DNA of 16,445 nt from a bacterium (GTDB lineage Bacteria > Acidobacteriota > Blastocatellia > HR10), in NCBI GenBank assembly GCA_041640655.1, contig JBEPZV010000051.1, positions 1-16,445 of the forward strand, written 5' to 3'. Positions within the stretch are counted from its first letter, which is position 1. Every line of letters starts with the position of its first letter. Below, piece after piece: positions 1,939 to 16,445 of the stretch. The notes below the pieces were generated by a model, which was given only the letters and a program-made list of their open reading frames with translations, had not been told where the DNA came from and ran no database searches. The position numbers and the translations under genes were made by a program.

Positions 1939-1974
1939 GCGAGCCCGTACAGGCAGAGCGGCCGCTTCTCGCGA

Positions 1975-2397: not shown

Positions 2398-2490
2398 CGT
2401 CCTTCACCTCCGAAAGACCCTCCGCGTGCGCGTCTCGCGCGCTCGGCCCCAGGATCCCTTGTCCCCCGATCGCGCGCGCCGCGCGGCCTC

Positions 2491-3696
2491 TCATGAGGGA
2501 GCTTCAGCGTCGGAGCGCAACGCCGCTTCCAGCGAGTGTTGCAGCGCGCGCCGCTTCGCTTCATAATCGGCTTCGGAGATCTCCCCGCGCTGCCGTCGCA
2601 CTTCGAGCGCGAAGAGCTCGTCTTTCAATGCCGTCAGGTCACGGGTCGGCGTGCCCGAGGCAGGACGCGACGCCTCCGCTCCCTCGCTCACCGTGCGCCT
2701 GAGCGCGTGATTTCGACGCACGGCCATCACGCTGCTCACAGCGAAGGCCAGAGCGAGGGCCGCCAGAATGATCCATTGCCACTTGGCGATCGGACCGGCG
2801 ACGGCTCGAACGGCTCCTCGCGCTTCCTCTGAAGGACCCTCCGCGAGGATATTCGGAGCCCGTCCGCTCACGCTCCAGGAGAGCTCCATCCCCGCGCGCG
2901 CATCGTCGAGCACATAGACCGAGAGCCCTTGCTCGGACCCCAGCGGTCGGAATCCGGCCGCTTCGACGCTCATGGGTTCGGGCACAAGAAGCCGCACGCG
3001 CCCGACATTCCACGGCAGCACCTCGCGAATGTGCGCGCGCTCCTCTGAATAGGGAAGTTGCGAGACGACGAAGAACTGCGTCGTCCCCGGTCGCAGCGGG
3101 TGTTCAATGCGCCAGGTGCCATCCCCGACCTCACGCGCGGCGATGGCGAGCGGCATGCCGCTGGCTCCCACCACGGAGACGCGCTCGGGGCGCACGCCCT
3201 CCGGCAAAGCGAAGGTGAAGATGCCCTCCGGGCGAAAGAGCGTCACCGGAGGCGTCGTCGCATTCCGAACGCTGTACTCCCGCCCGATGAGCAATCGGCC
3301 CTCCATCGGTTGCACGAGATACGTGAGCCGTTCGACCTCATATCGTCCCGCCGCGCGCGCTTCGTAGACGCGCAGCGTGAGGGACGAGCTGCCCGGGGAG
3401 ACCATCTCATGGTAGTTGACGCCTTGATATGTCGCCCGTACCATCATGGGCTTCGTCGTCGCGGCCGAGAATGCGAACCGTCCCTGCGCGTCCGTGCGCG
3501 TCTTCTCAGCGACCTGCATCCCTTCGTCGAGGACGACCAAGTGCACTTCGACGCCGGCCGCCGGTCTCCCCGTCGTGCCGTTGATCACCGTGCCGCGCAC
3601 GTCCGCGCGCACGAGCATGGGCACGCCAAGCAGGAGTACGAGCCCTCCCCACCGTCGAAGAGCCCGCGAGAGCATCTGTCGTGTCGAATGCTTCAT
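2491..3696 (-). CDS. Exported protein with N-terminal carboxypeptidase-regulatory-like beta-sandwich, C-terminal TM and SHOCT/CcmI-like tail (ccm accessory)
   Basis: Likely start ATG 3696 (MKHSTRQ; GGGAGGGAG upstream), signal peptide, then VRGTVINGTTGRPAAG...RTDAQGRFAF, TM WQWIILAALALAFAVSSVMAV and tail LKDELFALEVRRQRGEISEADYE. Confidence 0.8.
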   Translation of the reverse strand: MKHSTRQMLSRALRRWGGLVLLLGVPMLVRADVRGTVINGTTGRPAAGVEVHLVVLDEGMQVAEKTRTDAQGRFAFSAATTKPMMVRATYQGVNYHEMVSPGSSSLTLRVYEARAAGRYEVERLTYLVQPMEGRLLIGREYSVRNATTPPVTLFRPEGIFTFALPEGVRPERVSVVGASGMPLAIAAREVGDGTWRIEHPLRPGTTQFFVVSQLPYSEERAHIREVLPWNVGRVRLLVPEPMSVEAAGFRPLGSEQGLSVYVLDDARAGMELSWSVSGRAPNILAEGPSEEARGAVRAVAGPIAKWQWIILAALALAFAVSSVMAVRRNHALRRTVSEGAEASRPASGTPTRDLTALKDELFALEVRRQRGEISEADYEAKRRALQHSLEAALRSDAEAPS

Positions 3697-3736
3697 GAAC
3701 CGTCTCTCCCTCCCACGGCGCGAGCGATCGCCCTCC

Positions 3737-4021
3737 TCATGCGCGACGCTCGGCGGGCGACAGTCTCTCCAGCTCCGCCAGCACGACCGCGATCTCGGCC
3801 TCCAACGTCGCGCGCGCGCGTTCGTAGTCGGCCTCCGAGAGCTTACCCGCGCGATACTCGAAGCGCAGGTCACGAAGATTGTCGAGCAGTTGCTCCTTCT
3901 TCTCCGTCAAGACGGCGAGCCGATCCCTCACCCGCCCGACGTCCTGCGCCTCTTCGAAGAAGATGTACATGAGCGTCGCGAGCACCAGAACGCCACACAG
4001 GATCACAAGGAGGGCGGTCAC
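3737..4021 (-). CDS. Small membrane protein resembling the CcmI/CycH N-terminal segment
   Basis: GTG start overlapping the ccmH stop; N-terminal TM followed by amphipathic helices LLDNLRDLRFEYRAGKLSEADYERARATLE. Confidence 0.8.
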   Translation of the reverse strand: MTALLVILCGVLVLATLMYIFFEEAQDVGRVRDRLAVLTEKKEQLLDNLRDLRFEYRAGKLSEADYERARATLEAEIAVVLAELERLSPAERRA

Positions 4022-4608
4022 GGGAGACCTCCCAGTTCACGTTCGATCTCCTGGCGCACGCGCTCGCGCCAGGCCGGGTCGTCCGGGATCGGCGCGCCCA
4101 TCGTTGGAGTCGCAACCGACCGCCGAGACCATCGCCGCAGCACCAGGGCGATCACCACCAGCCCACCGGCCGCTGCCGCAAACGGCGCGATCCAGGCCGC
4201 CAGATTGAACCCCTGCGCCGGAGGAGCAGCCAGAACCGCCGTCCCGTACTGTTGGATCATCGCTTGGATGGCCAGATCATCGCTCTCGTAGCGTTGCACC
4301 GCCTGCCGCAACGTCGCTATCGCTGGCCCGGAGAACGGGCAGTTGCGATGATTGCATTCGACCAAGATTTGATTGCATCCGCAGAGACAGAGCAGTTTCT
4401 TCCCGATGCGCTTGACGCGCTCTTCGAGGGTCGCTTCGGACGCCTCCGCGCTCGAGGATGGCGCGCGCATCATATACGGAGCGGCGAGGAGAATCCCAAG
4501 AGCGAGGAGCAAGATCCATCGCCCCCTTCGGTCGAAGGGCTCGCGCGCATTCCCGGTGGTCATCCGCGCGCTCCCCCGAATGCCCCGATCCTCAATCCCC
4601 TTTGGCAT
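4018..4608 (-). CDS. ccmH: Cytochrome c biogenesis protein CcmH-like (Cys-rich variant); start may be 4563
   Basis: Signal/TM, KKLLCLCGCNQILVECNHRNC, QQYGTAVLAAPPAQGFNLAAWIAPF and a C-terminal TM; directly downstream of ccmF. Confidence 0.85.
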   Translation of the reverse strand: MPKGIEDRGIRGSARMTTGNAREPFDRRGRWILLLALGILLAAPYMMRAPSSSAEASEATLEERVKRIGKKLLCLCGCNQILVECNHRNCPFSGPAIATLRQAVQRYESDDLAIQAMIQQYGTAVLAAPPAQGFNLAAWIAPFAAAAGGLVVIALVLRRWSRRSVATPTMGAPIPDDPAWRERVRQEIERELGGLP

Positions 4609-6622
4609 ACGCGACCTCTCGCTCCCGAGCGGCAGCGCGTTCGCTCACAGCGACCTTCATCGGCCGGCGTCCCGGATACAGGGCGATGAGCGTCCCCAGG
4701 ATCACGATCCCGCCGCCGATCCACAGCCACCGCACAAGCGGATTCAGATAGGCGTGGATGATGGGGACTCCCGTCTCCGTCACGCCCGCGAAATAAATGT
4801 AGAGGTCCTCGCGCCATCCCGAATGGATCATCACTTTCGTGAGCGGCTGTTCGCTCGCCTTATACAGCCGCCGCTCCGGCATGAGCGTGGTGAGGACCTC
4901 GTCGCCCCGACGCACTTCGAGCGTGAGGCGATCGTAGATGTAATTCGGCGTCTCTCCCTGAGCCCGATCCTTCAAGGTCACGGCATAGCGGCCCAACTCC
5001 AGCGTCGCGCCCATGGGCATCTCCATCTCGCGCTCCTTATTGAAGGCCGCTCCGGCGATCCCCACGAAGACGACCACGATCCCGAAGTGCACGATGTATC
5101 CCCCATACCGCCGCGTGTTCCGAAGCACGAGCTGCGCGAGGGCTTGCCCCCAGGTCCGCCCCGTCTGTGAGCGGATGACCCGCGCTCCGCGCCAGAACTC
5201 GCTCACGATCGTGACGGTCACAAACGCTGCGAGCATGAAGGCGATCAGCGCATAAGGCTCCCTCACCCCGAAGGCGAGCAGGAGCACGCCCGTCGCCCCC
5301 CCGATGAGCGTCGGAGTGGTGAAGTTCCGCTTCAGGCTCTCCCACGACGTCCGCCGCCACGCCAGCAGCGGCCCCACGCCCGTCAAGAAAAGCAGAAAGA
5401 GGAAGATCGGGATGTTCACCCGATTGAAGAACGGCGGGCCAACGCTCACCTTATTCCCCGTGATCGCCTCCGAGATCACCGGAAAGAGCGTCCCCCACAG
5501 GACGGCGAAGCAAGCCGCCAGCAGCACCAGATTGTTGAAGAGAAAGGAAGCCTCGCGCGAGAGCACGGCCTCCAGCCGATGCTCACTCCGCAAATAGTCT
5601 CGACGGCGAGTGAAGAAGAAGAGGCAGACGGCGAACACCACCAGCAGGAACCCGGCGAACCAATGTCCGATCGGCGATTGCGCGAAGGCGTGCACCGAAC
5701 TCACCACGCCCGAGCGCGTCAGGAACGTGCCGAAGACGCAGAGCAGAAAGGTGATGAAGACCAACCACACGTTCCACACCTTGAGCATGCCACGGCGTTC
5801 CTGCATCATCACCGAGTGGAGGAACGCCGTGCCCGTCAGCCACGGCATGAACGACGCGTTCTCCACCGGGTCCCACGCCCAATACCCCCCCCAGCCGAGA
5901 ACGGCATACGCCCAATGCGCGCCCATCAGGATCCCCAGACTCAAAAAGCCCCAGGCGATCATCGTCCATCGGCGCGTGACATGAATCCATCGTTCCCCAG
6001 GCGAGCGCGTGATCAAGGCCGCGAGCGCAAAGGCGAAGGGGACGGAGAAGCCGACATAGCCGAGATAGAGCGTCGGAGGATGCAGGGCCATCTCCGGATA
6101 CTGCAGCAGCGGATTCAATCCCCGCCCATCCGGTGGCGCGAACGGACGCATCGTCCCATCGGCGGCCACTTCCGCCAGAGGCCGAAACGGGCTCACGATG
6201 AAGGCGTTCAGGATGAGGAAGAAGAGCTGAACGCCCGCCAGGATCGCGCCGGCCAGCGGCCGCAGCTCTCCCTCTTCCCGATGCCTCACCAGCACGACGA
6301 ACATGTAGCCGGAGAGGATCCAGCTCCAGAAGAGAAGTGATCCCTCCTGTCCCGCCCACAGCGCCGTGAGCTTATACAGAAGAGGGAGATCGCGATTGCT
6401 GTGATTCGCCACGTAAGCGATCGAGAACTCATTGGTGAGAAAGAGTCCCCACAGACAGGCGATCGCCACGCTCAGCGTGGGGAAGATCGTGACGCCCGCG
6501 CGCCGCGCCGTCTCCCGGAGAACAGGATGACCCGTCCGATGCGCCACGATCCCGGCGATGAAGGCATACGCACAGGCCGTCACAGCGAGCAGAACGGCGA
6601 AGGAGCCCAATGAGTCCATCAT
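4592..6622 (-). CDS. ccmF: Cytochrome c heme lyase subunit CcmF
   Basis: Motifs LWAGQEGSLLFW, GLNPLLQ, HPPTLYLGY, WGGYWAWDPVENASFMPW, SVHAF and YGGYIVHFG; start at MMDSLG (6622 or 6619) after GGGAG. Confidence 0.97.
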   Translation of the reverse strand: MMDSLGSFAVLLAVTACAYAFIAGIVAHRTGHPVLRETARRAGVTIFPTLSVAIACLWGLFLTNEFSIAYVANHSNRDLPLLYKLTALWAGQEGSLLFWSWILSGYMFVVLVRHREEGELRPLAGAILAGVQLFFLILNAFIVSPFRPLAEVAADGTMRPFAPPDGRGLNPLLQYPEMALHPPTLYLGYVGFSVPFAFALAALITRSPGERWIHVTRRWTMIAWGFLSLGILMGAHWAYAVLGWGGYWAWDPVENASFMPWLTGTAFLHSVMMQERRGMLKVWNVWLVFITFLLCVFGTFLTRSGVVSSVHAFAQSPIGHWFAGFLLVVFAVCLFFFTRRRDYLRSEHRLEAVLSREASFLFNNLVLLAACFAVLWGTLFPVISEAITGNKVSVGPPFFNRVNIPIFLFLLFLTGVGPLLAWRRTSWESLKRNFTTPTLIGGATGVLLLAFGVREPYALIAFMLAAFVTVTIVSEFWRGARVIRSQTGRTWGQALAQLVLRNTRRYGGYIVHFGIVVVFVGIAGAAFNKEREMEMPMGATLELGRYAVTLKDRAQGETPNYIYDRLTLEVRRGDEVLTTLMPERRLYKASEQPLTKVMIHSGWREDLYIYFAGVTETGVPIIHAYLNPLVRWLWIGGGIVILGTLIALYPGRRPMKVAVSERAAAREREVAYAKGD

Positions 6623-6654
6623 CCGCGCCCGTCTCCCAGAGAAGTCGAAGAGAA

Positions 6655-6684
6655 ATGGTACTCGCGCCCCTCCGGGAGCGTCAA
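6655..6684 (-). promoter_or_regulatory. Putative sigma70 promoter of the ccm operon
   Basis: Minus strand TTGACG (6684-6679), N18, TACCAT (6660-6655), about 30 nt upstream of the ccmF start. Confidence 0.6.
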
Positions 6685-6938
6685 GCGGCCGGAAGATCGC
6701 TCCTTGGGAGGCCCCCACCACGAATCACACCCCGCGAGATCACGACCGACGCGGGTGAGGGGCTTGCGCGCTCAAAAGCCCACGCCCGCCTATGCCGAGA
6801 GCGTCGCCTTCCAGGTGGTCAATGGTCGGCCAGAGGCCGACGCTTCCAGGCCTCGCGCTCCCACTGTCCCACCCGGCGACGATGCGCTCTCGAACCGCGA
6901 GCCTCCGCACGCCGTATCGTTCTCTCATCCTCCGTCAG

Positions 6939-6968
6939 TTGACGGTGCGGAGGGCCCCCGGCGATACT
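6939..6968 (+). promoter_or_regulatory. Putative sigma70 promoter of the serine hydrolase gene
   Basis: TTGACG (6939-6944), N18, GATACT (6963-6968); SD GGAGG at 7001-7005. Confidence 0.5.
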
Positions 6969-7012
6969 CCTTCCGCATGTTCGTCGGAATCCCATGTCGA
7001 GGAGGGATGAGG

Positions 7013-8371
7013 ATGAGAAAGCTCGGCTTCAGAGTGGGCTCGCTCGTCGCGTGCGTCCTTTTCGCCACCGCGCGCGGCAGTGCTCAGGACATCGCGTCCA
7101 AGATCGAGGCCTACATGAACGCTCACGTCCGCGTGAATCACTTCAGCGGAGCGATCCTCGTCGCTCGCGAAGGGCGGGTGATCCTGAGCAAAGGATACGG
7201 CTGGGCGAATATCGAGCACGAAGTGCCGAATACCCCGCAGACGAAGTTCCGCCTCGGCTCCATCACCAAGCAATTCACCGCGATGGCGATCCTGTTGCTC
7301 GAGGAACGCGGCCGGTTGAGCGTGCACGACCCGATTTGTACGTATGTGCCGAATTGCCCCGAGGCGTGGCGAGAGGTCACGATCCATCACTTGGTCACGC
7401 ATACGTCGGGAATTCCGAATTTCACCAGCTTCCCCGATTACGTCAGGACGCAGTGTCTGGAAGAGCCGTCGCCGCCAGCGAGCACGCTCGAGCGATTCCG
7501 GAATAAGCCCCTTGATTTCCGGCCGGGGGAGCGGATGAGTTACAGCAACTCGGGCTATATCGTGCTCGGCTACATCATCGAGAAAGTGGCGGGCGAGTCC
7601 TATGAGGCGTTCCTTCGGAAGAACATCTTTGAGCCGTTGAAGATGGCGAACACGGGCTACGAAAGCCGCGGCGCGATCCTGAAACACCGCGCCGCGGGCT
7701 ACAGTTGGCAGGGCGATCAGCTCATCAACGCGGCGTACATTGACATGACGATCCCTCACGCCGCCGGCGGATTGTACTCAACGGTGGAGGACCTCTTTCT
7801 CTGGGACCAAGCTCTCTACGCGGAACGGCTCGTCTCGAAGGCCTCGCTGGAGAGGATGTTCACGCCGTTCAAGGACAACTACGCATACGGCTGGATGGTG
7901 ACGACCCACCTCAAGCGCAAGATGATCGGACATGGAGGGCGCATCAACGGCTTCAGCACGTTCATCGCGCGATACCCGGACGACAAGGTGCTGGTCGTCG
8001 TGCTCAGCAATATCGAGAGCGCGCCATCGGGTCGGATCGCGCGCGATCTCGCCGCCATCGTCTTCGGCGAGCCGTACGAGCTCCCCAGAGAGCGCGTGGC
8101 CGTTAAGCTCGATCCGAAGATCCTCGACGCGTATGTCGGGCAATACGAGCTGGCCCCGAATCTGCTTCTCACCATCATCCGAGAAGGCGATCGGTTGCTG
8201 GTGCGGGTGGGAGGGCAGCCGCCGATCGAATTGTTCCCTGAATCGGAGACGAGATTCTTCCTCCGCGTCGTGGACGCCGAGATCACGTTCGTGAAGAACG
8301 AGCGGGGAGAAATCACCCACCTCGTGCTTCACCAGGGGGGACAAGATCACTTGGCGAGGAGGATTCGATAA
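7013..8371 (+). CDS. Secreted beta-lactamase-family (class C / D-aminopeptidase-like) serine hydrolase with C-terminal DUF3471-like domain
   Basis: Signal peptide MRKLGFRVGSLVACVLFATARGSA; SxxK (FRLGSITKQF), YxN (YSNSGY), HTSGIP and GHGG motifs; C-terminal LDAYVGQYEL...LFPESETRFF. SD supports a start at 7013 rather than 6704. Confidence 0.92.
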   Translation: MRKLGFRVGSLVACVLFATARGSAQDIASKIEAYMNAHVRVNHFSGAILVAREGRVILSKGYGWANIEHEVPNTPQTKFRLGSITKQFTAMAILLLEERGRLSVHDPICTYVPNCPEAWREVTIHHLVTHTSGIPNFTSFPDYVRTQCLEEPSPPASTLERFRNKPLDFRPGERMSYSNSGYIVLGYIIEKVAGESYEAFLRKNIFEPLKMANTGYESRGAILKHRAAGYSWQGDQLINAAYIDMTIPHAAGGLYSTVEDLFLWDQALYAERLVSKASLERMFTPFKDNYAYGWMVTTHLKRKMIGHGGRINGFSTFIARYPDDKVLVVVLSNIESAPSGRIARDLAAIVFGEPYELPRERVAVKLDPKILDAYVGQYELAPNLLLTIIREGDRLLVRVGGQPPIELFPESETRFFLRVVDAEITFVKNERGEITHLVLHQGGQDHLARRIR

Positions 8372-8518
8372 GCGCGCTCCCCTTTGGCTCAGGCCGACGC
8401 GGCAAGAGCATCATCTCCGGCGAATGGGGAGCGCGTCGGGAGACGGCGCCCTGGATCGCTCGCGACGTCTCCTGCCTTCGCGGCGAGGGGCTGACGCGCT
8501 GAACCGGCGCACGGTCCC

Positions 8519-10438
8519 TCACCCGCCCGTTTTCCTCACGTCTTCCACGAGCGCGCGCGCCAAGAGCAGGAGAAAGCGGGAACGCAACAGTGGGGATCGA
8601 ATGCGCCAGGACACAAGCCGCACCATGTAGGGATCTTCTCGTGCCAGAAGGAGGAGTTCGGCGGGGAGTTCGATCTCCTCGATCTCAGGCCGGTAGGTGA
8701 GCGACAGCTTTCCCGGCGTGAAGAGGACGCCTCCGAAGACCTCATCGCGCACATGAACTTTCTCCTCCGGCCCCGCTTCGTTCGCCGCCTGGATCGCCTC
8801 CATCAGGATGTGAAAGGCGCGCGTCGCATCCAGAGGAGCCAGCAGACCGGCGACGTCGAAGAAGCACTCGGCGCGACGGGGCGTCCGGGCCGCGCGCATC
8901 GCTTCCTGAACGGCCCTCTCCAGGAGCGCCCGCCCCGGTTCTATCTGCCGATCGCTCAAAAGCGCTCGAGCGATCTCGATGAAGGCCCGGGCGCGCCGTC
9001 CGGCATCGCCGAGCGTCGCAGCCACCTGCTGCGCCTCCTCAAACTGCCGCCGCGCTGTTTGCTCCATCGTCTGCCGAATCTTCACTTCCTCCAAAGTCAC
9101 TTCGCGCATCCGGATATCGGAGATTTTCTCCGCCGCTTTCCGAGCTTGCTCTGGGGGAACTCGCAGCGCCAGCTCTCGCAAGCGCTGATCCCGCACGCGA
9201 GCGCGAGGCTCCCGCTCGATGGCTTGCAGCTCTTCCTCAAGCGTCCCGCCAGCGACGCCCGGTGGGGAAACAGATCGCTGCTCATCCGGGAGCGCACCGA
9301 GAAGCGTCTGCGCGTAAACGGTCAGTTGCGCCGTCTGCACCGGATCGCCGAATTTCTGAAACAGCGGGAGGTAATCGTGGGTGAGCGACACGATGAACCT
9401 CCGCGTCTCTCGCGATCCGCTGAAAGCTCGACCGGCGCGCGCCTGTTGCCAGAGCATCTCCGCCCGTGCCAAGACATGCGCGAAAATCGCCTCCGCTTCT
9501 CGCTCCAAAGGCGCGAGCGAGTCGGCCGTGCGAAAGCGACGACTCAAATAGGCGCCGAGGACGGCCAGCGCCGAATCTTGGGAGAGCATCGGAAGCCGAG
9601 AGAAGACCACTCGAAACAGAGCGTCGCCCGCTTCGGGAGAACTCGCCGCCGACGTCAGCAGCACGCTCACGAGGGGAGGAATCTCACCGCTTGGTGAGAG
9701 CACGCGCCCGAGGACATCGGTGAGAAGCGAGACCTCTCGCGAGACATCCCCCGCCGACGCATCCCATAGCGCCGCCAGCATCTCTTGGTACAACGCCGCG
9801 CGCGTGAGCCCGCCGGTCGCGCGTTCGGCCTCTTCATCCGTGAGCCGCTCGATGAGGCGCGCGGCGAGTCTCGAATCCCGGCGAATCACCACGTGGAGAA
9901 GCTCTCGAAAGAGCACCCGCCGAAGTCCGACGTTCGCCGGCCGTTCCCTTCCTCCGCGTTCCTCCTTCACTTCCATGCGGACGATCTCATCCATCAGGTC
10001 CTCGCACAGCGAGCGTCCGGCCGGCTCATCGAGCGTCCACAGCAGGTCGGCCGCCTGAAGGCGAATGCGCCATCGCTGTGCGGGATCGGAGATCCGCTTG
10101 GCCTCTTCCAGAACCTCCTGCACGAGGAGGAAAGCGTCCCGCCGCTTCTCCGCAACCTCCTGCTCTTGCCCTCCAGGCTCCTGTCGGCCCTCGACTGCCG
10201 ACACCGCCTGAGCGCGTTCGGACGGCCCATCGAGCTTTTCAAGCTGACGGGATCCCCACGTGATCTGGAAGTCAGGCGGGGTGCTCACGAGAAGGATTCC
10301 GCCGACGACCAGCGCTCCCCGGATTCTCCCTCGCGTTCCTCGGCAAGGCCATCGCCGAGTCCGCAGGTCCGGAAAGCGCTCCCCTTGATCTCGAAGCTCG
10401 CGGATCGTCTGCCGAACCAAGACATGGAACCTCTGCAT
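8519..10438 (-). CDS. Hypothetical all-alpha helical-repeat (TPR-like) protein, possibly exported
   Basis: 639-aa ORF with SD GAAGGAGG; short hydrophobic stretch ALVVGGILLVS; repeated amphipathic helix pairs such as RARAFIEIARALL...GRALLERAVQEA and RAECFFDVAGLLAPLDATRAFHILMEAIQAAN. Confidence 0.75.
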   Translation of the reverse strand: MQRFHVLVRQTIRELRDQGERFPDLRTRRWPCRGTRGRIRGALVVGGILLVSTPPDFQITWGSRQLEKLDGPSERAQAVSAVEGRQEPGGQEQEVAEKRRDAFLLVQEVLEEAKRISDPAQRWRIRLQAADLLWTLDEPAGRSLCEDLMDEIVRMEVKEERGGRERPANVGLRRVLFRELLHVVIRRDSRLAARLIERLTDEEAERATGGLTRAALYQEMLAALWDASAGDVSREVSLLTDVLGRVLSPSGEIPPLVSVLLTSAASSPEAGDALFRVVFSRLPMLSQDSALAVLGAYLSRRFRTADSLAPLEREAEAIFAHVLARAEMLWQQARAGRAFSGSRETRRFIVSLTHDYLPLFQKFGDPVQTAQLTVYAQTLLGALPDEQRSVSPPGVAGGTLEEELQAIEREPRARVRDQRLRELALRVPPEQARKAAEKISDIRMREVTLEEVKIRQTMEQTARRQFEEAQQVAATLGDAGRRARAFIEIARALLSDRQIEPGRALLERAVQEAMRAARTPRRAECFFDVAGLLAPLDATRAFHILMEAIQAANEAGPEEKVHVRDEVFGGVLFTPGKLSLTYRPEIEEIELPAELLLLAREDPYMVRLVSWRIRSPLLRSRFLLLLARALVEDVRKTGG

Positions 10439-10459
10439 CTTCCCCTCCTTCGGGGCACA

Positions 10460-10487
10460 AGGATACTCGCGGTCCGAAGCCAGTCAA
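10460..10487 (-). promoter_or_regulatory. Putative sigma70 promoter of the 639-aa gene
   Basis: Minus strand TTGACT (10487-10482), N16, TATCCT (10465-10460), just upstream of SD and ATG 10438. Confidence 0.5.
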
Positions 10488-10519
10488 GAGCCTTCGCCCG
10501 AGCGTTCGCCGACCGATCT

Positions 10520-11080
10520 TCAAGGGGATGACGACTCCACGCGCCGGAGGATCTCAGTGAGCATCTCCTGTTCGGATTCGGGCTTCACTGGCATTCCCGT
10601 CCACACGGCTCGACACACCCCACGCCCGTCGAGCACGTAGTGCACAATTCCGCCCCCGATCTTCAAGCGCTCCTCTACGTCTTCGCAGGTGCTGAAGAAC
10701 AGATCCCCTTCCAACTTCGTCCGTTGCGCGAACGCCTGGAGCTCGTCAATCGAGCGCGCACAACCAATGATAACGTACCGCGCTCGGTCTGGGGGAAGGG
10801 CTTGTCTGATGCGATTCCAAAAAGGGACGCTCTCGACAGAGAAAGGACACGCCATGGAGAAGGCCGTCACGAAAAGGAGCTTTCCCTCGGCCTGTGGAAA
10901 TGGCCCGCCTCGAATAGGCTGAAGCTTTGGAAGGACCACGCGCTCGCCCACACGGATCGTATCCTTCTCCTTCTCCGGGACTTCCAACGACCGACGTTGG
11001 ATCGTCGTCCAGATCAAAGTTACCACCACATATGCGATGAGAAAGGCCACCAAAGCCAGAGTTACCCGCTTCGTTTTCAC
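10520..11080 (-). CDS. Membrane-anchored thioredoxin-fold (TlpA/AhpC-like) protein with CxxS site
   Basis: Likely start GTG 11080 (MKTKRVTLALVAFLIAYVVVTLIW; GAGG 8 nt upstream; avoids overlap with the peptide gene). Motifs IRVGERV, GKLLFVTAFSMACPFSVESVPFW and YVLDGRGVCRAVWTG fit a redoxin fold. Confidence 0.8.
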   Translation of the reverse strand: MKTKRVTLALVAFLIAYVVVTLIWTTIQRRSLEVPEKEKDTIRVGERVVLPKLQPIRGGPFPQAEGKLLFVTAFSMACPFSVESVPFWNRIRQALPPDRARYVIIGCARSIDELQAFAQRTKLEGDLFFSTCEDVEERLKIGGGIVHYVLDGRGVCRAVWTGMPVKPESEQEMLTEILRRVESSSP

Positions 11081-11090
11081 GGCAGTGGCC

Positions 11091-11375
11091 TCATGGGAGG
11101 ATCGGTCCCGGACCTGAGCATCCCGCTCCGATACAAGCTGTGCAGCACTCGCAGTTTGAGTACCGGCACTCTCCGTTGACACAATCTACCATGGTGCACT
11201 CGCAGCCTCCGAATCCCCACCAGCAACTGTTCGTGCATGCTCCTCCGCTCACAGGGCACGGGCCGGAAGCTGTGGCAGGAGCATAAAAAGCGGTTGCGCC
11301 CCCGAAGAGCGCGAAGAAGAGAACCGTCGTGAGTTCTTTTCGGACCCTCTGGAGGATCTCCGTTGAAATTTGCAT
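11091..11375 (-). CDS. Small secreted cysteine-rich peptide precursor (94 aa, 12 Cys)
   Basis: Strong SD AAAGGAGGAGG before ATG 11375. Leader MQISTEILQRVRKELTTVLFFALFGGATAFYAPATA ends in AxA; mature region SGPCPVSGGACTNSCWWGFGGCECTMVDCVNGECRYSNCECCTACIGAGCSGPGPILP. Confidence 0.8.
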   Translation of the reverse strand: MQISTEILQRVRKELTTVLFFALFGGATAFYAPATASGPCPVSGGACTNSCWWGFGGCECTMVDCVNGECRYSNCECCTACIGAGCSGPGPILP

Positions 11376-11412
11376 AACCCTCCTCCTTTGGAGCAGTGTT
11401 TCATGCGCCATG

Positions 11413-11437
11413 AGTATACTGTCTGTCTGTCTGTCAA
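11413..11437 (-). promoter_or_regulatory. Consensus-like -35/-10 pair with a tetranucleotide-repeat spacer upstream of the peptide gene
   Basis: Minus strand TTGACA (11437-11432), GACAGACAGACAG (13 nt), TATACT (11418-11413); 37 nt upstream of ATG 11375. Confidence 0.55.
11419..11434. repeat. (CTGT)4 simple sequence repeat
   Basis: ctgt ctgt ctgt ctgt, read directly at 11419-11434. Confidence 0.95.
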
Positions 11438-11628
11438 GCCCGAATTTGCAGAAGCACGGGGAGCAGGCTGGAGAAGGAGACACCTCACTGAAGGCCACGT
11501 TGCCAGCACGTCATTCTGTCGAGACACGGCAGCGCCCCGCGTTCAGGCGTATCGGCTTCGTGAGCCGAGCAGACGCACGAACAGGGCTCGAGAGCCGGCG
11601 CAAACGGCGGGCGAATCGCGGGATGCTC

Positions 11629-11658
11629 TTGACGGGGTGGCTGGGAGGCCGTTAGAGT
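11629..11658 (+). promoter_or_regulatory. Putative sigma70 promoter of the DUF4153-like gene
   Basis: TTGACG (11629-11634), N18, TAGAGT (11653-11658); ATG at 11666. Confidence 0.45.
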
Positions 11659-11665
11659 GTCGGCC

Positions 11666-13141
11666 ATGACGGCGATGCGCTCGGCCCGGTGGCTCGCGTC
11701 GGTGGCGCTGGCCCTTGGACTCTTGGGCGATTACTTGCTTCGCGCTCCGACGTGGGGGATCAACGTCGCCTTGGGATTGACCGCGATGGCCATGGCAGCC
11801 CTCGTGGCTTCGATGCTCTCGGTTTCGGATCGAAGCGAACGCCAGCAGACGGTGCGATGGCCGTGGTTCGCGGCCGCATTTTTCGCCGCCATGTGGGCTG
11901 TGCGCGATGCGGAGCTGTTGCTCGCGGTCGATCTGCTGGCCGCTTTGAGCCTCGCCTGCCTGCCGTTGATCCCAGGCGGCACTGCTGGCTTGCGAAGAGT
12001 CAGCGTGCTCGATGTGGTGGCCGCTACGATCGGTACGGCTTGGCGTACGGCGACAGGTGCCGCCGACCTGGTGCGTCACCTTCGACCGCACGCGACGTCG
12101 GGGCCGATCCTCTGGCGACGTGTCGCGACAATGGGGATCGGCTTGTTGCTCGCGATCCCTACTGTTCTGATCTTCGGTGCGCTGTTCGCTTCCGCCGATC
12201 CGGTGTTCGACAAGATGGTGGATTCGCTGATCGGCGTCGCCCTGAAATCCCTCGCCTCGCACGTGATCCTCACGATGGGGCTGGCGTGGGCGGCAGCGGG
12301 GTACCTGTGGACGCATGCAGCGGCCCGTCGGGTGACGCCGCCGGCACTGTCGCCGGTGACGTTAGGCTACACCCCGATGGTGACGGTCCTCGGCGCGACG
12401 GCACTGGTCTTCGCGCTCTTCATCCTCGTGCAAGCGCAGAGCCTCTTCGGGGGTGAGGCCTTCGTTCAAGCTCAAACGGGCCTCACGTATGCGGAGTATG
12501 CGCGGCGTGGATTCTTCCAGATGGTGTTCGCGGCGGCACTGGCGCTGCCGCTTGTGTACGTCGCCTGGTTCGCGGCTGGCTCGCCCGCGGATGCGCGGGG
12601 TGCCGCAGGGCTTCGCCTCATCATGGCGCTGCAGCTCGGCCTCACGACGCTGGTGCTCGTCTCGGCGCTTTGGAGGCTTGGCCTCTACATGCGCGCATAT
12701 GGGCTCACCGAGGATCGCCTCTATGGGGTGGCCGTGCTGCTGTGGATCGCTACGGTGATCGCCCTCTTTGTGCCGACCGTGCTGCGCGGTCGGCCGACGG
12801 GTGTCGTCCACGGGACGATCGTCGCGGCCGTAGTCATATTGGCTGCGCTCAACCTCGCCGATCCGGCGGCTCTGGTCGCGCGCTACAACCTCGCTCATCA
12901 AGAGCGCCGGACAGTGGACGTGAACTACTTGGCGCGGCTCAGCGCCGGTGCTGTGCCGGTGATCGTGGCTCGACTACGGGATGTGCCCTCGGCGGATCAG
13001 TGTGCGTTGGTCAACGCGCTCATGCGTCGGCATGGGGCGTCGCCTCCCGATTGGCGCGGATGGAACCTGGCGCGCGCTCGAGCGAAGCGCGCGCTCGCGG
13101 AGCTGGAGCTGCCGGCCTGCGCGCCTCATCGCGCGCGGTGA
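11666..13141 (+). CDS. DUF4153/DUF4173-like polytopic membrane protein (alternative start GTG 11657)
   Basis: Many TM segments; motifs LFASADPVF, YAEYARRGFFQMV, YMRAYGLTEDRLYG, VDVNYLARLS and DWRGWNL. Confidence 0.85.
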   Translation: MTAMRSARWLASVALALGLLGDYLLRAPTWGINVALGLTAMAMAALVASMLSVSDRSERQQTVRWPWFAAAFFAAMWAVRDAELLLAVDLLAALSLACLPLIPGGTAGLRRVSVLDVVAATIGTAWRTATGAADLVRHLRPHATSGPILWRRVATMGIGLLLAIPTVLIFGALFASADPVFDKMVDSLIGVALKSLASHVILTMGLAWAAAGYLWTHAAARRVTPPALSPVTLGYTPMVTVLGATALVFALFILVQAQSLFGGEAFVQAQTGLTYAEYARRGFFQMVFAAALALPLVYVAWFAAGSPADARGAAGLRLIMALQLGLTTLVLVSALWRLGLYMRAYGLTEDRLYGVAVLLWIATVIALFVPTVLRGRPTGVVHGTIVAAVVILAALNLADPAALVARYNLAHQERRTVDVNYLARLSAGAVPVIVARLRDVPSADQCALVNALMRRHGASPPDWRGWNLARARAKRALAELELPACAPHRAR

Positions 13142-13206
13142 TCTTCGCCTATTGCTCATTTGCCGTCTGCAGGACAGTGTTCTGTCGAGCCCGAGGTGGG
13201 CGATCT

Positions 13207-14526
13207 TCAGTCGTAATACTCCAGGCCGAGGTGGGTGATCAGCTCCTCGCCGCGCAGATACCGGAGCGTGTTCTTGAGCTTCATGAGCTGAATGAAGAGA
13301 TCGTGCTCCGGGTAGAGGCCGGGGGCTGTCATCGGGCTCTTGAAGTAGAAGCTCAGCCACTCTTGGATTCCACGCATGCCGCACCGCTGCGCCAGATCCA
13401 GAAAGAGTACGAGATCCAACACCAGCGGTGCCGCCAGGATCGAATCCCGACAGAGGAAATTGATCTTGATCTGCATCGGGTAGCCGAGCCAGCCGAAGAT
13501 GTCAATGTTGTCCCATCCCTCTTTGTTGTCGCCGCGCGGAGGATAGTAGTTGATGCGCACCAGATGAACGAAATCCCCGTAGAGATCCGGGTACAGCTCC
13601 GGCTGGAGGATGTAGTCGAGGACGGAGCGTTTGGATTCCTCCTTCGTGCGAAAGCTCTCGGGATCGTCAAGCACTTCCCCATCGCGATTACCGAGGATGT
13701 TCGTCGAATACCAGCCGCTCAACCCGAGCAGGCGCGCTTTGAGGCCCGGCGCGATGATCGTCTTCAGGAGCGTCTGCCCGGTCTTCAGGTCTTTCCCGGC
13801 GATCGGCACGTGGTTTCGTTGAGCCAATTCGATAAGCGCTGGGATGTCCACGGTGAGGTTGGGCGCGGCGTTGGCGAAGGGGACGCGACAGCGCAGCGCC
13901 GCGTAGGCGTAGATCATCGAGGGCGCGATATACGGGGAGTTCTCCATGAGCCCGCGCTCGAAGGCGTCCAGCGACCCATGCACCTCCGGTCTCGGCTCCA
14001 TGTAAATTTCGGTCGAGCCGCACCAGATCATGACCAGCCGCGCGCACCGATGCCGCGCGCGAAACGCCTCGATGTCCTCGATGAGCTGCTCGGCCAATTC
14101 GTACTTGGTCCGTCCGGTCTTCACGTTCGTCCCATTCAGCCGCTTCACGTAGGCGCGATCGAAGACGGCCCTCATGGGCTTGATCTCGCGCAGCTCCGGT
14201 TCGAGCACGGCGAGCAGCTCTTTCTCCAGGACTCCGGCGTGCAGAGCCGCTTCATACGCATCGTCCTCGAAGATGTCCCAGGCGCCGAAGACGAGGTCTT
14301 CCAATCGAGCCAGTGGCACGAAGTCCTTGATCTTCGGCACGCGTCCTTCGGTGCGTTTCCCCAACCGAATCGTCCCCATCTGCGTCAGACTGCCGATGGG
14401 CTTGCCGATGCCGCGGCGAATGGCTTGAACGCCCGCGATGAACGTCGTGCTCACAGCCCCTAAGCCGACCAGCAGGACGCCCAGCGTCCCCGTCGGCTCT
14501 GCGATCCTCACGCCCTTTTCGATCAT
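13207..14526 (-). CDS. ino1: myo-Inositol-1(3)-phosphate synthase
   Basis: GLGAVSTT (NAD binding), GKDLKTGQT, NILGNRDG, YYPPRGDNKEGWD, CRDSILAAPLVLDL and FYFKSP motifs; SD GAAGGAG. Confidence 0.95.
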   Translation of the reverse strand: MIEKGVRIAEPTGTLGVLLVGLGAVSTTFIAGVQAIRRGIGKPIGSLTQMGTIRLGKRTEGRVPKIKDFVPLARLEDLVFGAWDIFEDDAYEAALHAGVLEKELLAVLEPELREIKPMRAVFDRAYVKRLNGTNVKTGRTKYELAEQLIEDIEAFRARHRCARLVMIWCGSTEIYMEPRPEVHGSLDAFERGLMENSPYIAPSMIYAYAALRCRVPFANAAPNLTVDIPALIELAQRNHVPIAGKDLKTGQTLLKTIIAPGLKARLLGLSGWYSTNILGNRDGEVLDDPESFRTKEESKRSVLDYILQPELYPDLYGDFVHLVRINYYPPRGDNKEGWDNIDIFGWLGYPMQIKINFLCRDSILAAPLVLDLVLFLDLAQRCGMRGIQEWLSFYFKSPMTAPGLYPEHDLFIQLMKLKNTLRYLRGEELITHLGLEYYD

Positions 14527-14827
14527 CGCTTGCTCCTTCTCGAAGAGTTCTGTCCCCGGCCATCCCGAGGATCACGCCGGGGACGTTCGCCGAAGATTCA
14601 GTGTACGAGGCCGAGGCGTTCACGTCTCGCGCTCACTTGCTCGGATTTCGCGCTCAATTGCGCTCTCGCCGCCATGTGCGCACTCCGGGCGGAATGTGAG
14701 CTGCTCGCGTGAGGGGGATCCGTGCCCGCACGATCTGACTCAGGTTCGGAGGCCCGCGAAACAAACTGTCCGGTGACGTGGAGGACTCGCGAAGACGTGC
14801 CGCTCCCAGGTGTCCTTGAGGGGGCGA

Positions 14828-15796
14828 TCAAGAGAGTCGGCCGCGCAACTGGCTGTAGTATTCGATCTCCTCGGGATCCTCGATCTTGTACTTCTCCCAG
14901 ATCGTCGCGTGGCCGCGAACGGCGCGCAGGATGTCCGCGACGGACGCGATGTCATGAGGGAAGATCAGGTTGAAATTCACCCCCGGAGCTCCATCGCTGA
15001 GGAGGCGTTCCACGATCTCGATGGTGACCTCCAGACCGATCCGCGCGGCTTCCTCTTTGCTCCGCGCCTGCTCCAGGCGCTCCACAATCTCGCGCGGGAC
15101 GGGGATATGAAGGCTCGTGTGCAAAAACAGGCACCGGCGCACGCTCGTGAGCGGGATCACGGAGGGGAGGATCGGGACGGTGATCCCGTGAGCGAGCGCC
15201 GCTTCCGCGTAGCGCGCATAGTTGGTCGGATCCGTGATGATGTTGGCGATGATGCCTTGCGCGCCAGCTTCGATCTTCCGCCGTTGATAGGCCATGTGTT
15301 TGGCGAGCGCGTGCGATGGGTATTCCGGATGCCCGGCGACGAAGATGTCAATCGCGTAGCCCTGTGCGTCGCGGTATTCTCGAAGGAGCTGAACCAGCTC
15401 GACCGTCGAGAATTTGAAGGCGTCCACCTCGCGCGAGCGATGGGGCGTCGGATCCCCGCGCAGGACGAGGACGTCGGAGACAGCTCTTCGATTCATCTCA
15501 TCGGCGCGACTGTAGACGCTACGCACCGATCCCTCGTCGCGCGCCGTCAGGTGAATGACGATCGGCGTCTCCGGTCGCCAGGCCCGGATCGTCTCGACGA
15601 CCGCGAGCGGGTTCATGCGAAAGCTGCCGCCGGTGCTGTTGGTCACGGCGATGCCCGCGATGTCGAAATCCTTCAACGCCTGCACCATCTCGCCCGTCTT
15701 CACCATGGTCGTGTAGTTGACGGGCGGACTGATCTCGACGGTGAAGGTCCGCTCACCGGCCTCCGCTTTCGCGCGCAGTGTGCCGAGTAGCGCCAT
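14828..15796 (-). CDS. metF: Methylenetetrahydrofolate reductase-family (MetF-like) flavoprotein, divergent
   Basis: TVEISPP, IHLTARD, VLVLRGD, AGHPE, RKIEAGA and VPILPSVIP motifs. Start MALLG at 15796 after GAGGAG and a promoter. Confidence 0.8.
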   Translation of the reverse strand: MALLGTLRAKAEAGERTFTVEISPPVNYTTMVKTGEMVQALKDFDIAGIAVTNSTGGSFRMNPLAVVETIRAWRPETPIVIHLTARDEGSVRSVYSRADEMNRRAVSDVLVLRGDPTPHRSREVDAFKFSTVELVQLLREYRDAQGYAIDIFVAGHPEYPSHALAKHMAYQRRKIEAGAQGIIANIITDPTNYARYAEAALAHGITVPILPSVIPLTSVRRCLFLHTSLHIPVPREIVERLEQARSKEEAARIGLEVTIEIVERLLSDGAPGVNFNLIFPHDIASVADILRAVRGHATIWEKYKIEDPEEIEYYSQLRGRLS

Positions 15797-15823
15797 CGTT
15801 CTCTCCTCGCCGGCCGTGTGTTG

Positions 15824-15853
15824 GTTATAACAGAAGTCGCGCGGAGGGCTCAA
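15824..15853 (-). promoter_or_regulatory. Putative sigma70 extended -10 promoter of the metF-like gene
   Basis: Minus strand TTGAGC (15853-15848), N18, TATAAC (15829-15824), preceded by TGn (TGT-TATAAC). Confidence 0.65.
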
Positions 15854-15873
15854 GGGCGCAGAGTCAGCATCGC

Positions 15874-16353
15874 TCATGCGCTCGATGCTCGCGCCGGGGG
15901 AGGAACGTCGCGACGAATCGTCACCTGTCGCGTCGTCTCATCCATCCATAGGATCTCGACACGGTAGACGAGCAGAATCGCGCGGGCATCGAGCGACTCG
16001 GCGGGAATCTTCTCCCCCCATTCGATGGCCACGACGGCCGGAGCGGCGAGGATCTCCCGGAGGCCGAGATGTTCGAAGATGGCGCGCGGATCGTCGAGGC
16101 GATATAGGTCAATGTGGTAGAACGGCCATCGTCCGTAGTGGATGTTGATGAGCGTGAATGAAGGGCTGGTGACTTCGTCGGGATCAATGCCCAGGCCCGC
16201 GGCCAGGCCTTTCGCGAAGACGGTCTTTCCGGTGCCCAGTTCTCCGATGAGCAAGAAGAGCGCCGGGGCGTCGAGATCACAAGTGAGGCGTTCGGCGAGC
16301 GCGCGCGTCTCCTCAGGCGAGCGCGTGAGGAACGTTCCCTGAACGTCGCTCAT
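15874..16353 (-). CDS. tsaE: tRNA threonylcarbamoyladenosine biosynthesis ATPase TsaE
   Basis: GELGTGKT, SPSFTL, HIDLYRL and IEWGE motifs; SD GGAGGAG. Confidence 0.96.
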   Translation of the reverse strand: MSDVQGTFLTRSPEETRALAERLTCDLDAPALFLLIGELGTGKTVFAKGLAAGLGIDPDEVTSPSFTLINIHYGRWPFYHIDLYRLDDPRAIFEHLGLREILAAPAVVAIEWGEKIPAESLDARAILLVYRVEILWMDETTRQVTIRRDVPPPARASSA

Positions 16354-16445
16354 CTTCTCCTCCGATCGAGGCGATGGCGTCGCCCAAATGGGCCGTCACG
16401 TCCGAAGCGAGCATGACGCGCGCACCCAGGCGACGCGCGGCCAGA
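16313..16445 (-). CDS. nnr: C-terminus of NAD(P)HX dehydratase (NnrD/YjeF), partial
   Basis: Hand translation LAARRLGARVMLASDVTAHLGDAIASIGGE...* resembles the YjeF C-terminal helix; yjeF-tsaE adjacency is a well-known conserved gene order. Confidence 0.7.
   Translation of the reverse strand, partial: LAARRLGARVMLASDVTAHLGDAIASIGGEDERRSGNVPHALA

Follow-up and report, generated by a model that had tools for sequence, protein, structure and literature searches.

A 16,445-nucleotide (nt) stretch of DNA from a bacterium of the acidobacterial class Blastocatellia (assembly GCA_041640655.1, contig JBEPZV010000051.1, positions 1 to 16,445; hereafter the window) carries on its minus strand three adjacent genes that encode, in this order, the precursor of a 12-Cys peptide, a membrane-anchored thioredoxin-like protein with a single active-site cysteine (the partner) and a large alpha-helical-repeat protein (gene 3). 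We propose that they form a three-gene operon for an exported 12-Cys peptide, a dedicated monothiol thioredoxin-fold isomerase or holdase and a TPR-like protein, a proposal to which we give about an even chance. A first-pass annotation of the letters alone had singled out the first two genes as a secreted disulfide-rich peptide with its own redoxin; the third cassette gene, a variable (GACA)n promoter and the existence of several analogous cassettes go beyond it. The peptide family, the thioredoxin-like subfamily and gene 3 are all unnamed.

The 12-cysteine precursor

The peptide gene (11091..11375, minus strand) starts with ATG, encodes 94 amino acids (aa) followed by a stop codon and matches no family. 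Its Shine-Dalgarno sequence, AAGGAGGAGGG (11378..11388, minus strand), ends 2 nt before the ATG. Residues 1-36 (11268..11375, minus strand) read as a Sec-type signal peptide whose n-, h- and c-regions can be followed along the sequence: the charged residues R10, R12 and K13 precede an uncharged stretch from L15 to F31 and A-T-A at positions 34-36, with cleavage predicted between ATA and SG. The mature Cys/Gly-rich domain, S37-P94 (11094..11267, minus strand), holds 12 Cys and 11 Gly in 58 aa, with two CxC, one CC and two CxxC motifs and no CxxCH, its cysteines being spaced C-6-C-3-C-6-C-1-C-4-C-4-C-4-C-1-CC-2-C-4-C. The first-pass annotation had described the open reading frame (ORF), its strong Shine-Dalgarno sequence, the leader ending in ATA and the composition of the mature region correctly, and the AxA leader turned out to be kept in paralogs and distant relatives. 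A lipoprotein was considered and discarded, because the Pro at position -1 before the first Cys leaves no lipobox.

No Pfam or NCBIfam model matches the peptide at E ≤ 1; a Pfam scan of six members of its family gave a meaningful match for 0/6, and the Cys spacing fits no Pfam family. A profile search of PDB sequences returned chance matches (E ≥ 1.7). Judged by Pfam models and PDB profiles, the peptide matches no sequence model or solved structure of knottins, defensins, granulins, metallothioneins or MauA, and such a match was among the refuting outcomes named at first pass, none of which overturned the idea. The nearest ESM Atlas clusters, at 0.77-0.80, are unnamed Acidobacteriota proteins of 66-71 aa and are no better than chance. 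Rfam recognised no family in the window, and PADLOC gave no match for the peptide, the thioredoxin-like protein, gene 3 or the NHL-like protein of the C25 cassette described below.

Among 5.8 billion proteins, relatives of the peptide were found in 3 clusters with the single sequence and in 7 clusters with a profile. A HMMER search with the mature-domain profile against 1.84 billion representatives gave 6 matches at E ≤ 0.001, of which 2 belong to the family itself, 1 is spurious (P0012, a Cys-free repeat protein of 1,613 aa, dropped from the relatives) and 3 are peptides of 84-89 aa (P0013-P0015; E 1e-4 to 3e-4). These three peptides, like P0016 (91 aa), carry a signal peptide with an AxA-type site and share the framework with all 12 Cys; at 36-41% identity these distant relatives retain the fixed Cys framework together with conserved W, Y and V-D-C-V positions. 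In the four full-length peptides of the close family 12/12 Cys are invariant at 59-60% identity between paralogs, and A-S-G-P-C-P-V and the central C-E-C-T-x-V-D-C-V-x-G are also kept; A-x-A followed by SGPCPV is conserved in the paralogs. Similarity of a fifth aligned row, P0011, ends after C-V-S-G, and this sequence looks frame-shifted or truncated.

Between paralogs the nonsynonymous divergence (dN) is 0.22-0.24 and the synonymous divergence (dS) is saturated, synonymous TGC/TGT differences occur at 3/12 Cys codons, and dN/dS between two close copies of the paralog lineage is 0.17. Since the Cys are invariant while their codons differ synonymously, and dN/dS is low, these alignments identify the peptide gene as a coding gene under purifying selection that belongs to a new small family. 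A genome search with the peptide at E ≤ 1 gave matches in 36 genomes, of which those at 3 places (one in G000, two in G002) are real and the others have E ≥ 0.006. Weak class-level matches in G636, G546, G563 and G607 (E 0.002-0.009) were treated as chance, and the one inspected (L048 of G636) is an unrelated low-GC locus.

A monothiol thioredoxin-like partner

The stop codon of the peptide gene, TGA (11091-11093), is followed by exactly 10 nt (GGCCACTGCC) and then by the GTG at 11080 with which the second gene starts (10520..11080, minus strand); a GAGG overlaps the peptide stop codon ahead of this start. The 10-nt gap and the GAGG over the stop suggest translation coupled to that of the peptide. 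The product is a membrane-anchored TlpA/ResA/CcmG-like thioredoxin-fold protein of 186 aa with an N-terminal transmembrane helix at about residues 6-27 (11000..11065, minus strand; hydrophobic stretch VTLALVAFLIAYVVVTLIWTTI), which in the structural model is part of a helix spanning residues 2-33. Its active-site motif is the monothiol C78-P-F-S81 (codons at 10838..10849, minus strand), which aligns with the CPPC of 3or5 and with the CEYC and CRAC of distant homologs. The position, strand, membrane helix and CPFS motif of this gene (residues 78-81) had all been noted rightly at first pass. A 6-nt indel near position 10962 of the window removes one E-K from the E-K-E-K linker behind the membrane helix and tells strains apart: contigs of runs X20, X9 and X19 have it, as does P0003.

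No family model matches the partner: Pfam gave only a chance match to Vpu (E 0.14) and NCBIfam none, Redoxin (PF08534) and Thioredoxin_8 did not match at E ≤ 1, and the dsbE model (TIGR00385) did not match. Elsewhere the genome holds 13 Redoxin-family matches and 8 places that match the dsbE model, and the partner gene is in neither set. Relatives of the partner number 6 among 5.8 billion proteins, and four Cys (78, 107, 132 and 156) are invariant. An AlphaFold2 model from a 6-row alignment reached a pLDDT (predicted local distance difference test) of 85.7 and shows a long helix at the N-terminus (residues 2-33) and, behind it, a beta-alpha-beta / beta-beta-alpha domain. The top Foldseek matches of this model in the PDB were DsbE (3gl3), a thiol-disulfide oxidoreductase from Bacillus (4nmu), CcmG (2b1k) and ResA (1st9), with E 1.8e-8 to 5e-8 and template-modelling (TM) scores of ~0.75-0.8 on the target; the TlpA mixed-disulfide complexes 4txo and 4txv stood lower among the matches. 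A PDB-sequence profile search gave weak matches (E 0.22-1.6), 3/4 of them thioredoxin-like, the best being 3or5 with CPPC opposite CPFS. The model confirms a TlpA-type thioredoxin fold. The label "redoxin" chosen at first pass is right in terms of fold and fails by the family models of Pfam and NCBIfam; at the level of sequence the partner is tied to the Redoxin family only via a homolog in G021 (see below).

The pair is conserved as a unit and is followed by gene 3

A 12-Cys ORF lies immediately upstream in 7/7 loci with a full-length close homolog of the partner (the window, L028, L029, L030, L034, L031 and L035), counting loci with visible context; L034 is G002:C20 and L035 is G002:C12, and L028, with 99% identity to the window, could come from the same strain. 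In the L034/L004 copy (G002:C20) a 7-nt deletion just after the peptide ATG puts the start out of frame in a gene that is otherwise 98% identical, so that this copy is, by its sequence, either a pseudogene or an assembly error. L031 and L035 represent a paralogous cassette with ~60% identity for both proteins and a different neighbourhood, which implies that the pair was duplicated, or retained, as a unit. In 3/3 loci with only a C-terminal remnant of the partner gene, of ~70-110 codons (L019 on G001:C21, L032 and L033), there is no 12-Cys gene, and gene 3, of 630 aa there, is intact. The expectation expressed at first pass, that homologs of the redoxin sit beside Cys-rich small ORFs, is borne out by the 7/7 close full-length loci, by a 10-Cys peptide in G021 and by a 4-Cys peptide one gene away in G000:C59.

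The product of gene 3 (8519..10438, minus strand) is a TPR-like protein of 639 aa made of alpha-helical repeats. It has a hydrophobic segment at the N-terminus and a conserved A-D-L-L-W-x-x-D-E motif, falls into no named family and is related in the Atlas, at 0.94, to large unnamed Acidobacteriota clusters. Gene 3 lies downstream of the partner gene in all 6 loci that extend far enough. Homologs occur in 34/41 sampled genomes of the class, often in several copies, with up to 12 matches per genome. When 30 gene-3 loci were scanned with a crude script, a membrane protein with C-x-x-[CSTA] was flagged beside the gene in 3 (L092, L093 and L098), and a signal-bearing small ORF with at least 6 Cys in 5, namely L092 and L093, which are of the family itself, L107 and L116, which look genuine, and L110, which looks spurious. 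The association of peptide, partner and gene 3 is recurrent, not universal.

In G001 the place of the peptide gene, upstream of the partner remnant, is taken by a gene (L019, 2014-3321, minus strand) for a 435-aa NHL/SGL-like beta-propeller protein with a Cys-rich C-terminus, which begins with the leader of the 12-Cys peptide (LRKEVATILFFAL; L-R-K-E-V-A-T-I-L-F-F-A-L). From this comparison the leader seems to be common to unrelated cargos.

The peptide hairpin is predicted to occupy the active-site groove

Complex prediction for partner residues 40-186 with the mature peptide gave 0.62, 0.64 and 0.62 in three runs, and 0.00 for 3/3 controls; the mark applied is attained by 116/157 solved complexes and by 2/215 mismatched pairs. 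At least 89% of contacts recur between the runs, and the pLDDT of the partner chain is about 48-51. On the side of the partner the predicted interface comprises residues 75, 77-80 (C-P-F), 142-145 (G-G-G-I), 161-166 (T-G-M-P-V), 168-169 and 172, and on the side of the mature peptide residues 24-32 (C-T-M-V-D-C-V-N-G) and 36-38, which places the conserved hairpin in the active-site groove with C78 in contact with mature Cys29 (Cys65 of the precursor). The interface loops coincide with the invariant patches of the partner family, and three such loops form the substrate groove of thioredoxins. The model supports binding and says nothing on catalysis.

Distant cassettes with a complete active site

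In G021, a genome of another family of the class with 50% G+C, one strand carries a stop-interrupted Cys-rich ORF, an 86-aa secreted 10-Cys peptide that also has an AxA-type site, a 205-aa membrane thioredoxin-like protein and a 551-aa gene-3 homolog. The thioredoxin-like protein has CEYC and a cis-Pro (F-T-P), matches Pfam Redoxin with E 1.2e-5, just under the cut-off, and is homologous to the partner of the window (genome search E 1.7e-4; hhalign probability 87.7%, E 3.4e-6), with CEYC aligned opposite CPFS and YPYWNE opposite VPFWNR. The stop-interrupted ORF (L122 on G021:C34, 4679-5026, minus strand) is the first of two tandem 10-Cys peptide genes and has its in-frame stop in the apparent signal peptide; this copy is probably a decayed duplicate.

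The order in G000:C59 is a 73-aa secreted 4-Cys peptide, a 630-aa gene-3 homolog and a 211-aa membrane thioredoxin-like protein with CRAC and I-P-Q. G000:C25 (L036, C25:20500-28500) carries at 610-4595 (plus strand), behind a (GACA)4 promoter, a four-gene cassette for a 96-aa secreted 8-Cys peptide, a gene-3 homolog of 593 aa that aligns with the gene-3 protein of the window over 492 aa (BLASTP E 5e-11), a membrane protein of 220 aa that contains STTCPGA and a 383-aa NHL-like lipoprotein. Neither hhalign (probabilities of 0.4% and 1.4%) nor Pfam or PDB matches linked the STTCPGA protein to thioredoxins. The full CxxC and cis-Pro in distant cassettes point to an ancestral catalytic role. Judged by these sequences, the window locus is one of several analogous cassettes and not a lone system.

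A promoter-like module with a variable GACA repeat

The most unexpected element of the locus is the set of (GACA)n promoters to which it belongs. A promoter-like module, TTGACA(GACA)3-G-TATACT (11413..11437, minus strand), lies 38 nt upstream of the peptide ATG. Its hexamers are only 13 nt apart, because it has four GACA units, counting one inside TTGACA; a generic sigma-70 promoter scan did not call it, since its spacer falls outside 16-18 nt. The module precedes every ortholog and paralog of the peptide gene, with 4 GACA units in the window, L028, L029 and L030, 3 in L034, 5 in L031 and 7 in L035. Contigs of three DNA runs have 4 units each at the window locus, and contigs hide minority variants.

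GACA is the commonest tetranucleotide repeat of at least 3 units in the 3.1-Mb genome, where such runs occur 10 times (n = 3-8), in the window and on G000 contigs C2, C19, C25, C32, C36, C54, C59, C66 and C91. All 10 share the context [GA]-[CT]-T-[TG]-(GACA)n-[GC]-T-A-[TCG]-A-[CA]-T, usually with an A-rich tract before and nnn-GGC after. At 8/10 modules a script located, 30-53 nt downstream, a start codon with a strong Shine-Dalgarno sequence, in most cases that of a small secreted and often Cys-rich ORF; of the two others, C91 has a GGAGG-preceded ORF according to the ORF listing and C59 runs off its contig. Counts of the 15-mer TTGACAGACAGACAG among 12 genomes of the order were 12 in G002, 9 in G000, 7 in G005, 3 in G006, 1 each in G001, G003 and G007 and 0 in G004, with 0 in the 4 genomes of the other two families; a reversed control pattern gave 0 everywhere. 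The 30 module loci fetched from these genomes have 3 units in 18 cases, 4 in 3, 6 in 4, 7 in 3, 8 in 1 and 9 in 1. A Shine-Dalgarno-preceded ORF follows at 28/30, and 18/28 of these ORFs have at least 4 Cys, most with an N-terminal hydrophobic segment. One orthologous family of F-[LP]-C-x-[FYS]-D-C genes has 7, 6, 4 and 3 units in G006, G005, G001 and G002, respectively.

The same promoter and leader, MMSLRPRHSTPGGGK, stand in front of unrelated Cys-rich mature parts in G000:C54 (L079) and G002:C16 (L080). Likewise, members of the MRLTREFLRRG leader set (G000:C66/C59, G002:C12 and G005:C54) have the same promoter and N-terminus on unrelated Cys-rich mature regions. By these comparisons, the shared modules show a conserved-leader, variable-cargo pattern.

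Hexamer spacing follows 4n-3 (9, 13, 17, 21, 25, 29 and 33 nt), so that only n = 5 gives the canonical 17 nt. By analogy, the repeat may be read in two ways, as a spacing switch or rheostat like that of porA or hif, or as the binding site of a regulator. The available part of a paper describes contingency-locus promoters with poly-G in Neisseria meningitidis porA and TA repeats in Haemophilus influenzae hif between -35 and -10 (PMC3899988). As in those examples, a short tandem repeat lies here between -35-like and -10-like hexamers and differs in copy number between close relatives; unlike them, as far as that part goes, the repeat is a tetranucleotide that changes the spacer by 4 nt at a time, the module recurs at about ten loci of a free-living hot-spring acidobacterium, and the case is known from sequence. 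Titles and abstracts on tetranucleotide repeats and phase-variable promoters mentioned neither Acidobacteria nor a GACA promoter repeat.

Tentatively, and with more doubt than trust, we extend this to genus-wide contingency loci: about ten promoters per genome with hypermutable (GACA)3-9 would drive a module of 5' untranslated region and signal peptide on fast-diverging disulfide-rich mini-proteins, thioredoxin-like partners would fold or covalently trap these, and the TPR-like protein would be their common handler.

A 1,622-nt metatranscriptomic contig of depth 12.9 (run X20; 9753..11379, no strand assigned) covers the peptide gene, the partner gene and the 5' third of gene 3. It ends 4 nt upstream of the peptide ATG and stops short of the GACA repeat; there is no coverage at 11380-11501, and depth over the divergent upstream gene is 2.6. 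The contig is consistent with an operon that starts at the predicted promoter, and for the expression presumed at first pass it is a weak hint.

Proposed mechanism and alternatives

We propose that the three genes are transcribed from the (GACA)n-containing promoter and that, as its sequence features suggest, the precursor would be exported by Sec and cut by signal peptidase I after A-T-A to yield a 58-residue 12-Cys mini-protein. The genome encodes a VKOR homolog (80.7 bits, above the cut-off), so exported Cys are expected to be oxidised, and in such a VKOR-equipped envelope the peptide would most likely acquire up to six disulfides. Translation of gene 2 would be coupled to that of the peptide gene 10 nt upstream, and the groove of its product, formed in the model by C78-P-F-S, the G142-G-G-I loop and the T161-G-M-P-V loop, would take up the invariant hairpin C-E-C-T-x-V-D-C-V-x-G. 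From the CxxS motif we infer that C78 would be a lone nucleophile, which either attacks a wrong disulfide to form a mixed disulfide that the peptide's own thiols resolve, or holds the peptide; alone the partner would be unable to donate or remove a disulfide. It is because the partner keeps only the nucleophilic Cys that we favour a monothiol isomerase or holdase for one difficult substrate. Ancestral cassettes would have had a full CxxC enzyme, the 12-Cys lineage having specialised to the monothiol form, and gene 3 would be a TPR-like envelope protein, the constant companion of such cassettes. For the final role of the peptide, an antagonistic or protective exoprotein is our guess.

Several observations weigh against this proposal. 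The second active-site Cys is Ser or Ala in all 6 aligned partner sequences (CPFS, CPFA and CPLA), and the cis-Pro position, which is gapped in the alignment to 3or5, is occupied by Ile145 after G-G-G, compared with A-I-P-Q in C59 and F-T-P-M in G021. A resolving Cys and a cis-Pro are normally needed for turnover, and as both are missing the partner may be catalytically dead. The pass of the complex prediction may reflect memory, because thioredoxin/TlpA mixed-disulfide complexes (4txo and 4txv) have been solved, and the peptide's own fold is uncertain in that model. By itself, the mature peptide gave an unusable AlphaFold2 model (4-row alignment, pLDDT 47.7) that yields neither a fold nor a disulfide map; the knottin- or defensin-like fold suggested at first pass was not obtained. 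The families are tiny (7 peptide clusters and 6 partner proteins among 5.8 billion), too small for covariation analysis. The joint loss of two adjacent genes can also be explained trivially, by one deletion, and gene 3 persists where the pair is lost and occurs widely in its absence. The RNA-library contig attests presence in the library only and does not prove a single transcript, and DNA may contaminate the library. A complex model that passes its controls supports the pairing seen at first pass; because the second active-site Cys and the cis-Pro are missing, the dedicated folding catalyst of that annotation is only one of two live readings.

The other live reading, which we regard as possible but doubtful, is that the partner is tethered to the membrane as a binder devoid of redox activity. 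As an immunity or retention protein it would capture the exported peptide either non-covalently or by a long-lived mixed disulfide at C78, and the pair would resemble a Sec-dependent bacteriocin with its immunity gene. Such a protein would account for groove residues that are invariant despite CxxS/CxxA and the lack of a cis-Pro, for a complex model that favours binding and is silent on catalysis, and for the promoter and leader modules on unrelated Cys-rich cargo in the genus, as expected of antagonistic or diversifying proteins; a secreted peptide followed by a small membrane protein is, moreover, the classic gene order of bacteriocin and immunity. It does not explain why distant cassettes retain CxxC and cis-Pro, a permanent mixed disulfide would leave one thiol of the even number of 12 Cys unpaired, and no killing activity is known. 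In addition, according to the available part of the report, the thiol oxidoreductase of the bacteroidetocin clusters gave no protection (PMC6671954). We consider it unlikely that the adjacency is without meaning for the peptide, which would then be an independent exoprotein, while the partner would serve gene 3 or general envelope redox, for instance as a stand-in CcmG. The top fold matches (CcmG, ResA and DsbE) fit this, as do a window that holds ccmC, B, A, E, H and F but no ccmG, gene-3 homologs with thioredoxin-like neighbours at other loci, and the persistence of gene 3 without the peptide. The 10-nt gap with its GAGG and a complex model that docks the peptide and gives 0.00 for unrelated proteins argue in the other direction, as do the genome's other Redoxin and dsbE matches, the miss of the partner by the dsbE model and its lack of CxxC. 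A role as CcmG itself was rejected: there is no CxxC or cis-Pro, the paralogous cassette lies away from ccm genes, three relatives keep only a degraded gene 2, and in the window gene 3 and an opposite-strand beta-lactamase-like gene separate the partner from ccmF.

It is very unlikely that the peptide binds metals through thiolates, as a periplasmic sponge of the metallothionein kind that takes up Cu, As or Hg and whose thiols the partner keeps or loads. A mature part with 21% Cys, CxC, CC and CxxC motifs and many Gly could be read in this way, and the sequencing runs in which the locus occurs are for the most part metagenomes of hot springs and sediments; yet the conserved W, Y and V-D-C-V and a Cys framework that stays fixed at 36-41% identity resemble a folded disulfide scaffold, a VKOR oxidase is present in the envelope, a monothiol partner cannot be a reductase, and the cassette contains no metal transporter or chaperone. 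We give hardly any credence to a precursor of a ribosomally synthesised and post-translationally modified peptide (RiPP) whose Cys would be converted to thioethers, thiazoles and the like by enzymes encoded elsewhere. The gene is indeed a small Cys-rich ORF with an N-terminal extension, but that extension is a typical Sec signal with an AxA site and not a RiPP leader. Radical SAM, YcaO, LanB/C/M, peptidase and ABC exporter genes are absent from the ORFs of the 16.4-kb window, which upholds the first-pass annotation on this point, and from those listed around the paralogous cassette, and NCBIfam, which includes many RiPP precursor models, gave no match.

Genomic surroundings

The host genome assembly is 3.1 Mb in size, 89.8% complete and has 63.7% G+C. 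Among the ccm genes of the window, the CcmH homolog (4018-4608, minus strand) reads L-C-L-C-G-C-N-Q, a spacing that looks unusual; CcmH proteins carry an R-C-x-x-C-Q motif. Between ccmE and ccmH, a 460-aa ORF (2491-3873, minus strand) has a CarboxypepD_reg-like domain and a weakly CcmI-like C-terminus (TIGR03142, E 0.007) and may, from its sequence, be an unusual CcmI.

Relation to known systems and significance

With TlpA, ResA and CcmG (DsbE) (3gl3, 2b1k, 1st9, 4txo and 4txv) the partner shares the membrane anchor, the TlpA-type fold, the Cys at the N-terminus of helix 1 and, by prediction, the same three groove loops. Those proteins have CxxC and a cis-Pro, whereas the partner has CPF[SA] or CPLA and Ile and is missed by the Redoxin and dsbE models, and its neighbour is a Cys-rich peptide and not a maturation gene for cytochromes or Cu-proteins. 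Monothiol CxxS motifs are found in PDI-family members such as ERp44 (CRFS) and yeast Eug1p (CLHS/CIHS), whose single Cys forms mixed disulfides with clients and so serves isomerisation or retention, not oxidation; these are eukaryotic proteins of the endoplasmic reticulum, and their likeness to the partner is limited to the fold. In methylamine dehydrogenase, an analogy drawn at first pass, the membrane thioredoxin-like protein MauD accompanies MauA, a small 12-Cys subunit with six disulfides; unlike MauA, the present peptide has no Pfam match at all, and no other mau genes lie in the window. Titles and abstracts on Cys-rich secreted peptides of Acidobacteria with a thioredoxin-like partner described no such system.

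The nearest functional parallels, as far as the available parts of the sources go, are the sublancin cluster, sunA-sunT-bdbA-sunS-bdbB (PMC6391423), and bacteroidetocin clusters, which carry their own thiol oxidoreductase (PMC6671954). There too the gene of a small exported Cys peptide adjoins a thioredoxin-superfamily gene of its own, which the disulfides require or which is presumed to form them. According to the same partial accounts, those clusters encode peptides with 4-5 Cys behind a double-glycine or dedicated leader, together with an ABC transporter/peptidase, whereas here there are 12 Cys and a Sec signal and the window has no such transporter; the partner is monothiol (CxxS/A) and lacks a cis-Pro, a large TPR-like gene belongs to the cassette, and the peptide has no known antibacterial activity. 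By analogy, the system would function like these oxidoreductase pairs, and it is a member of neither cluster type, as it has no double-glycine leader and no transporter.

Dedicated oxidoreductases of exported peptides are known for bacteriocins with 2 disulfides. A bacterial mini-protein with 12 Cys and probably six disulfides that has a monothiol thioredoxin-fold partner of its own would provide a new compact model of how proteins very dense in Cys are folded or retained in the envelope of a bacterium at high temperature, and the peptide would also offer hyperstable scaffolds. Since all three protein families are unnamed, they could be annotated by a single expression experiment. From the shared (GACA)n promoter it seems that this free-living hot-spring acidobacterium controls a whole repertoire of small secreted proteins by a hypermutable repeat, a strategy documented, in the available part of the paper, mainly in host-adapted pathogens (PMC3899988). 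Should the contingency-locus reading be true, this repertoire would be a bacterial counterpart of venom-peptide repertoires and the first switchable exo-peptide arsenal in a free-living thermophile.

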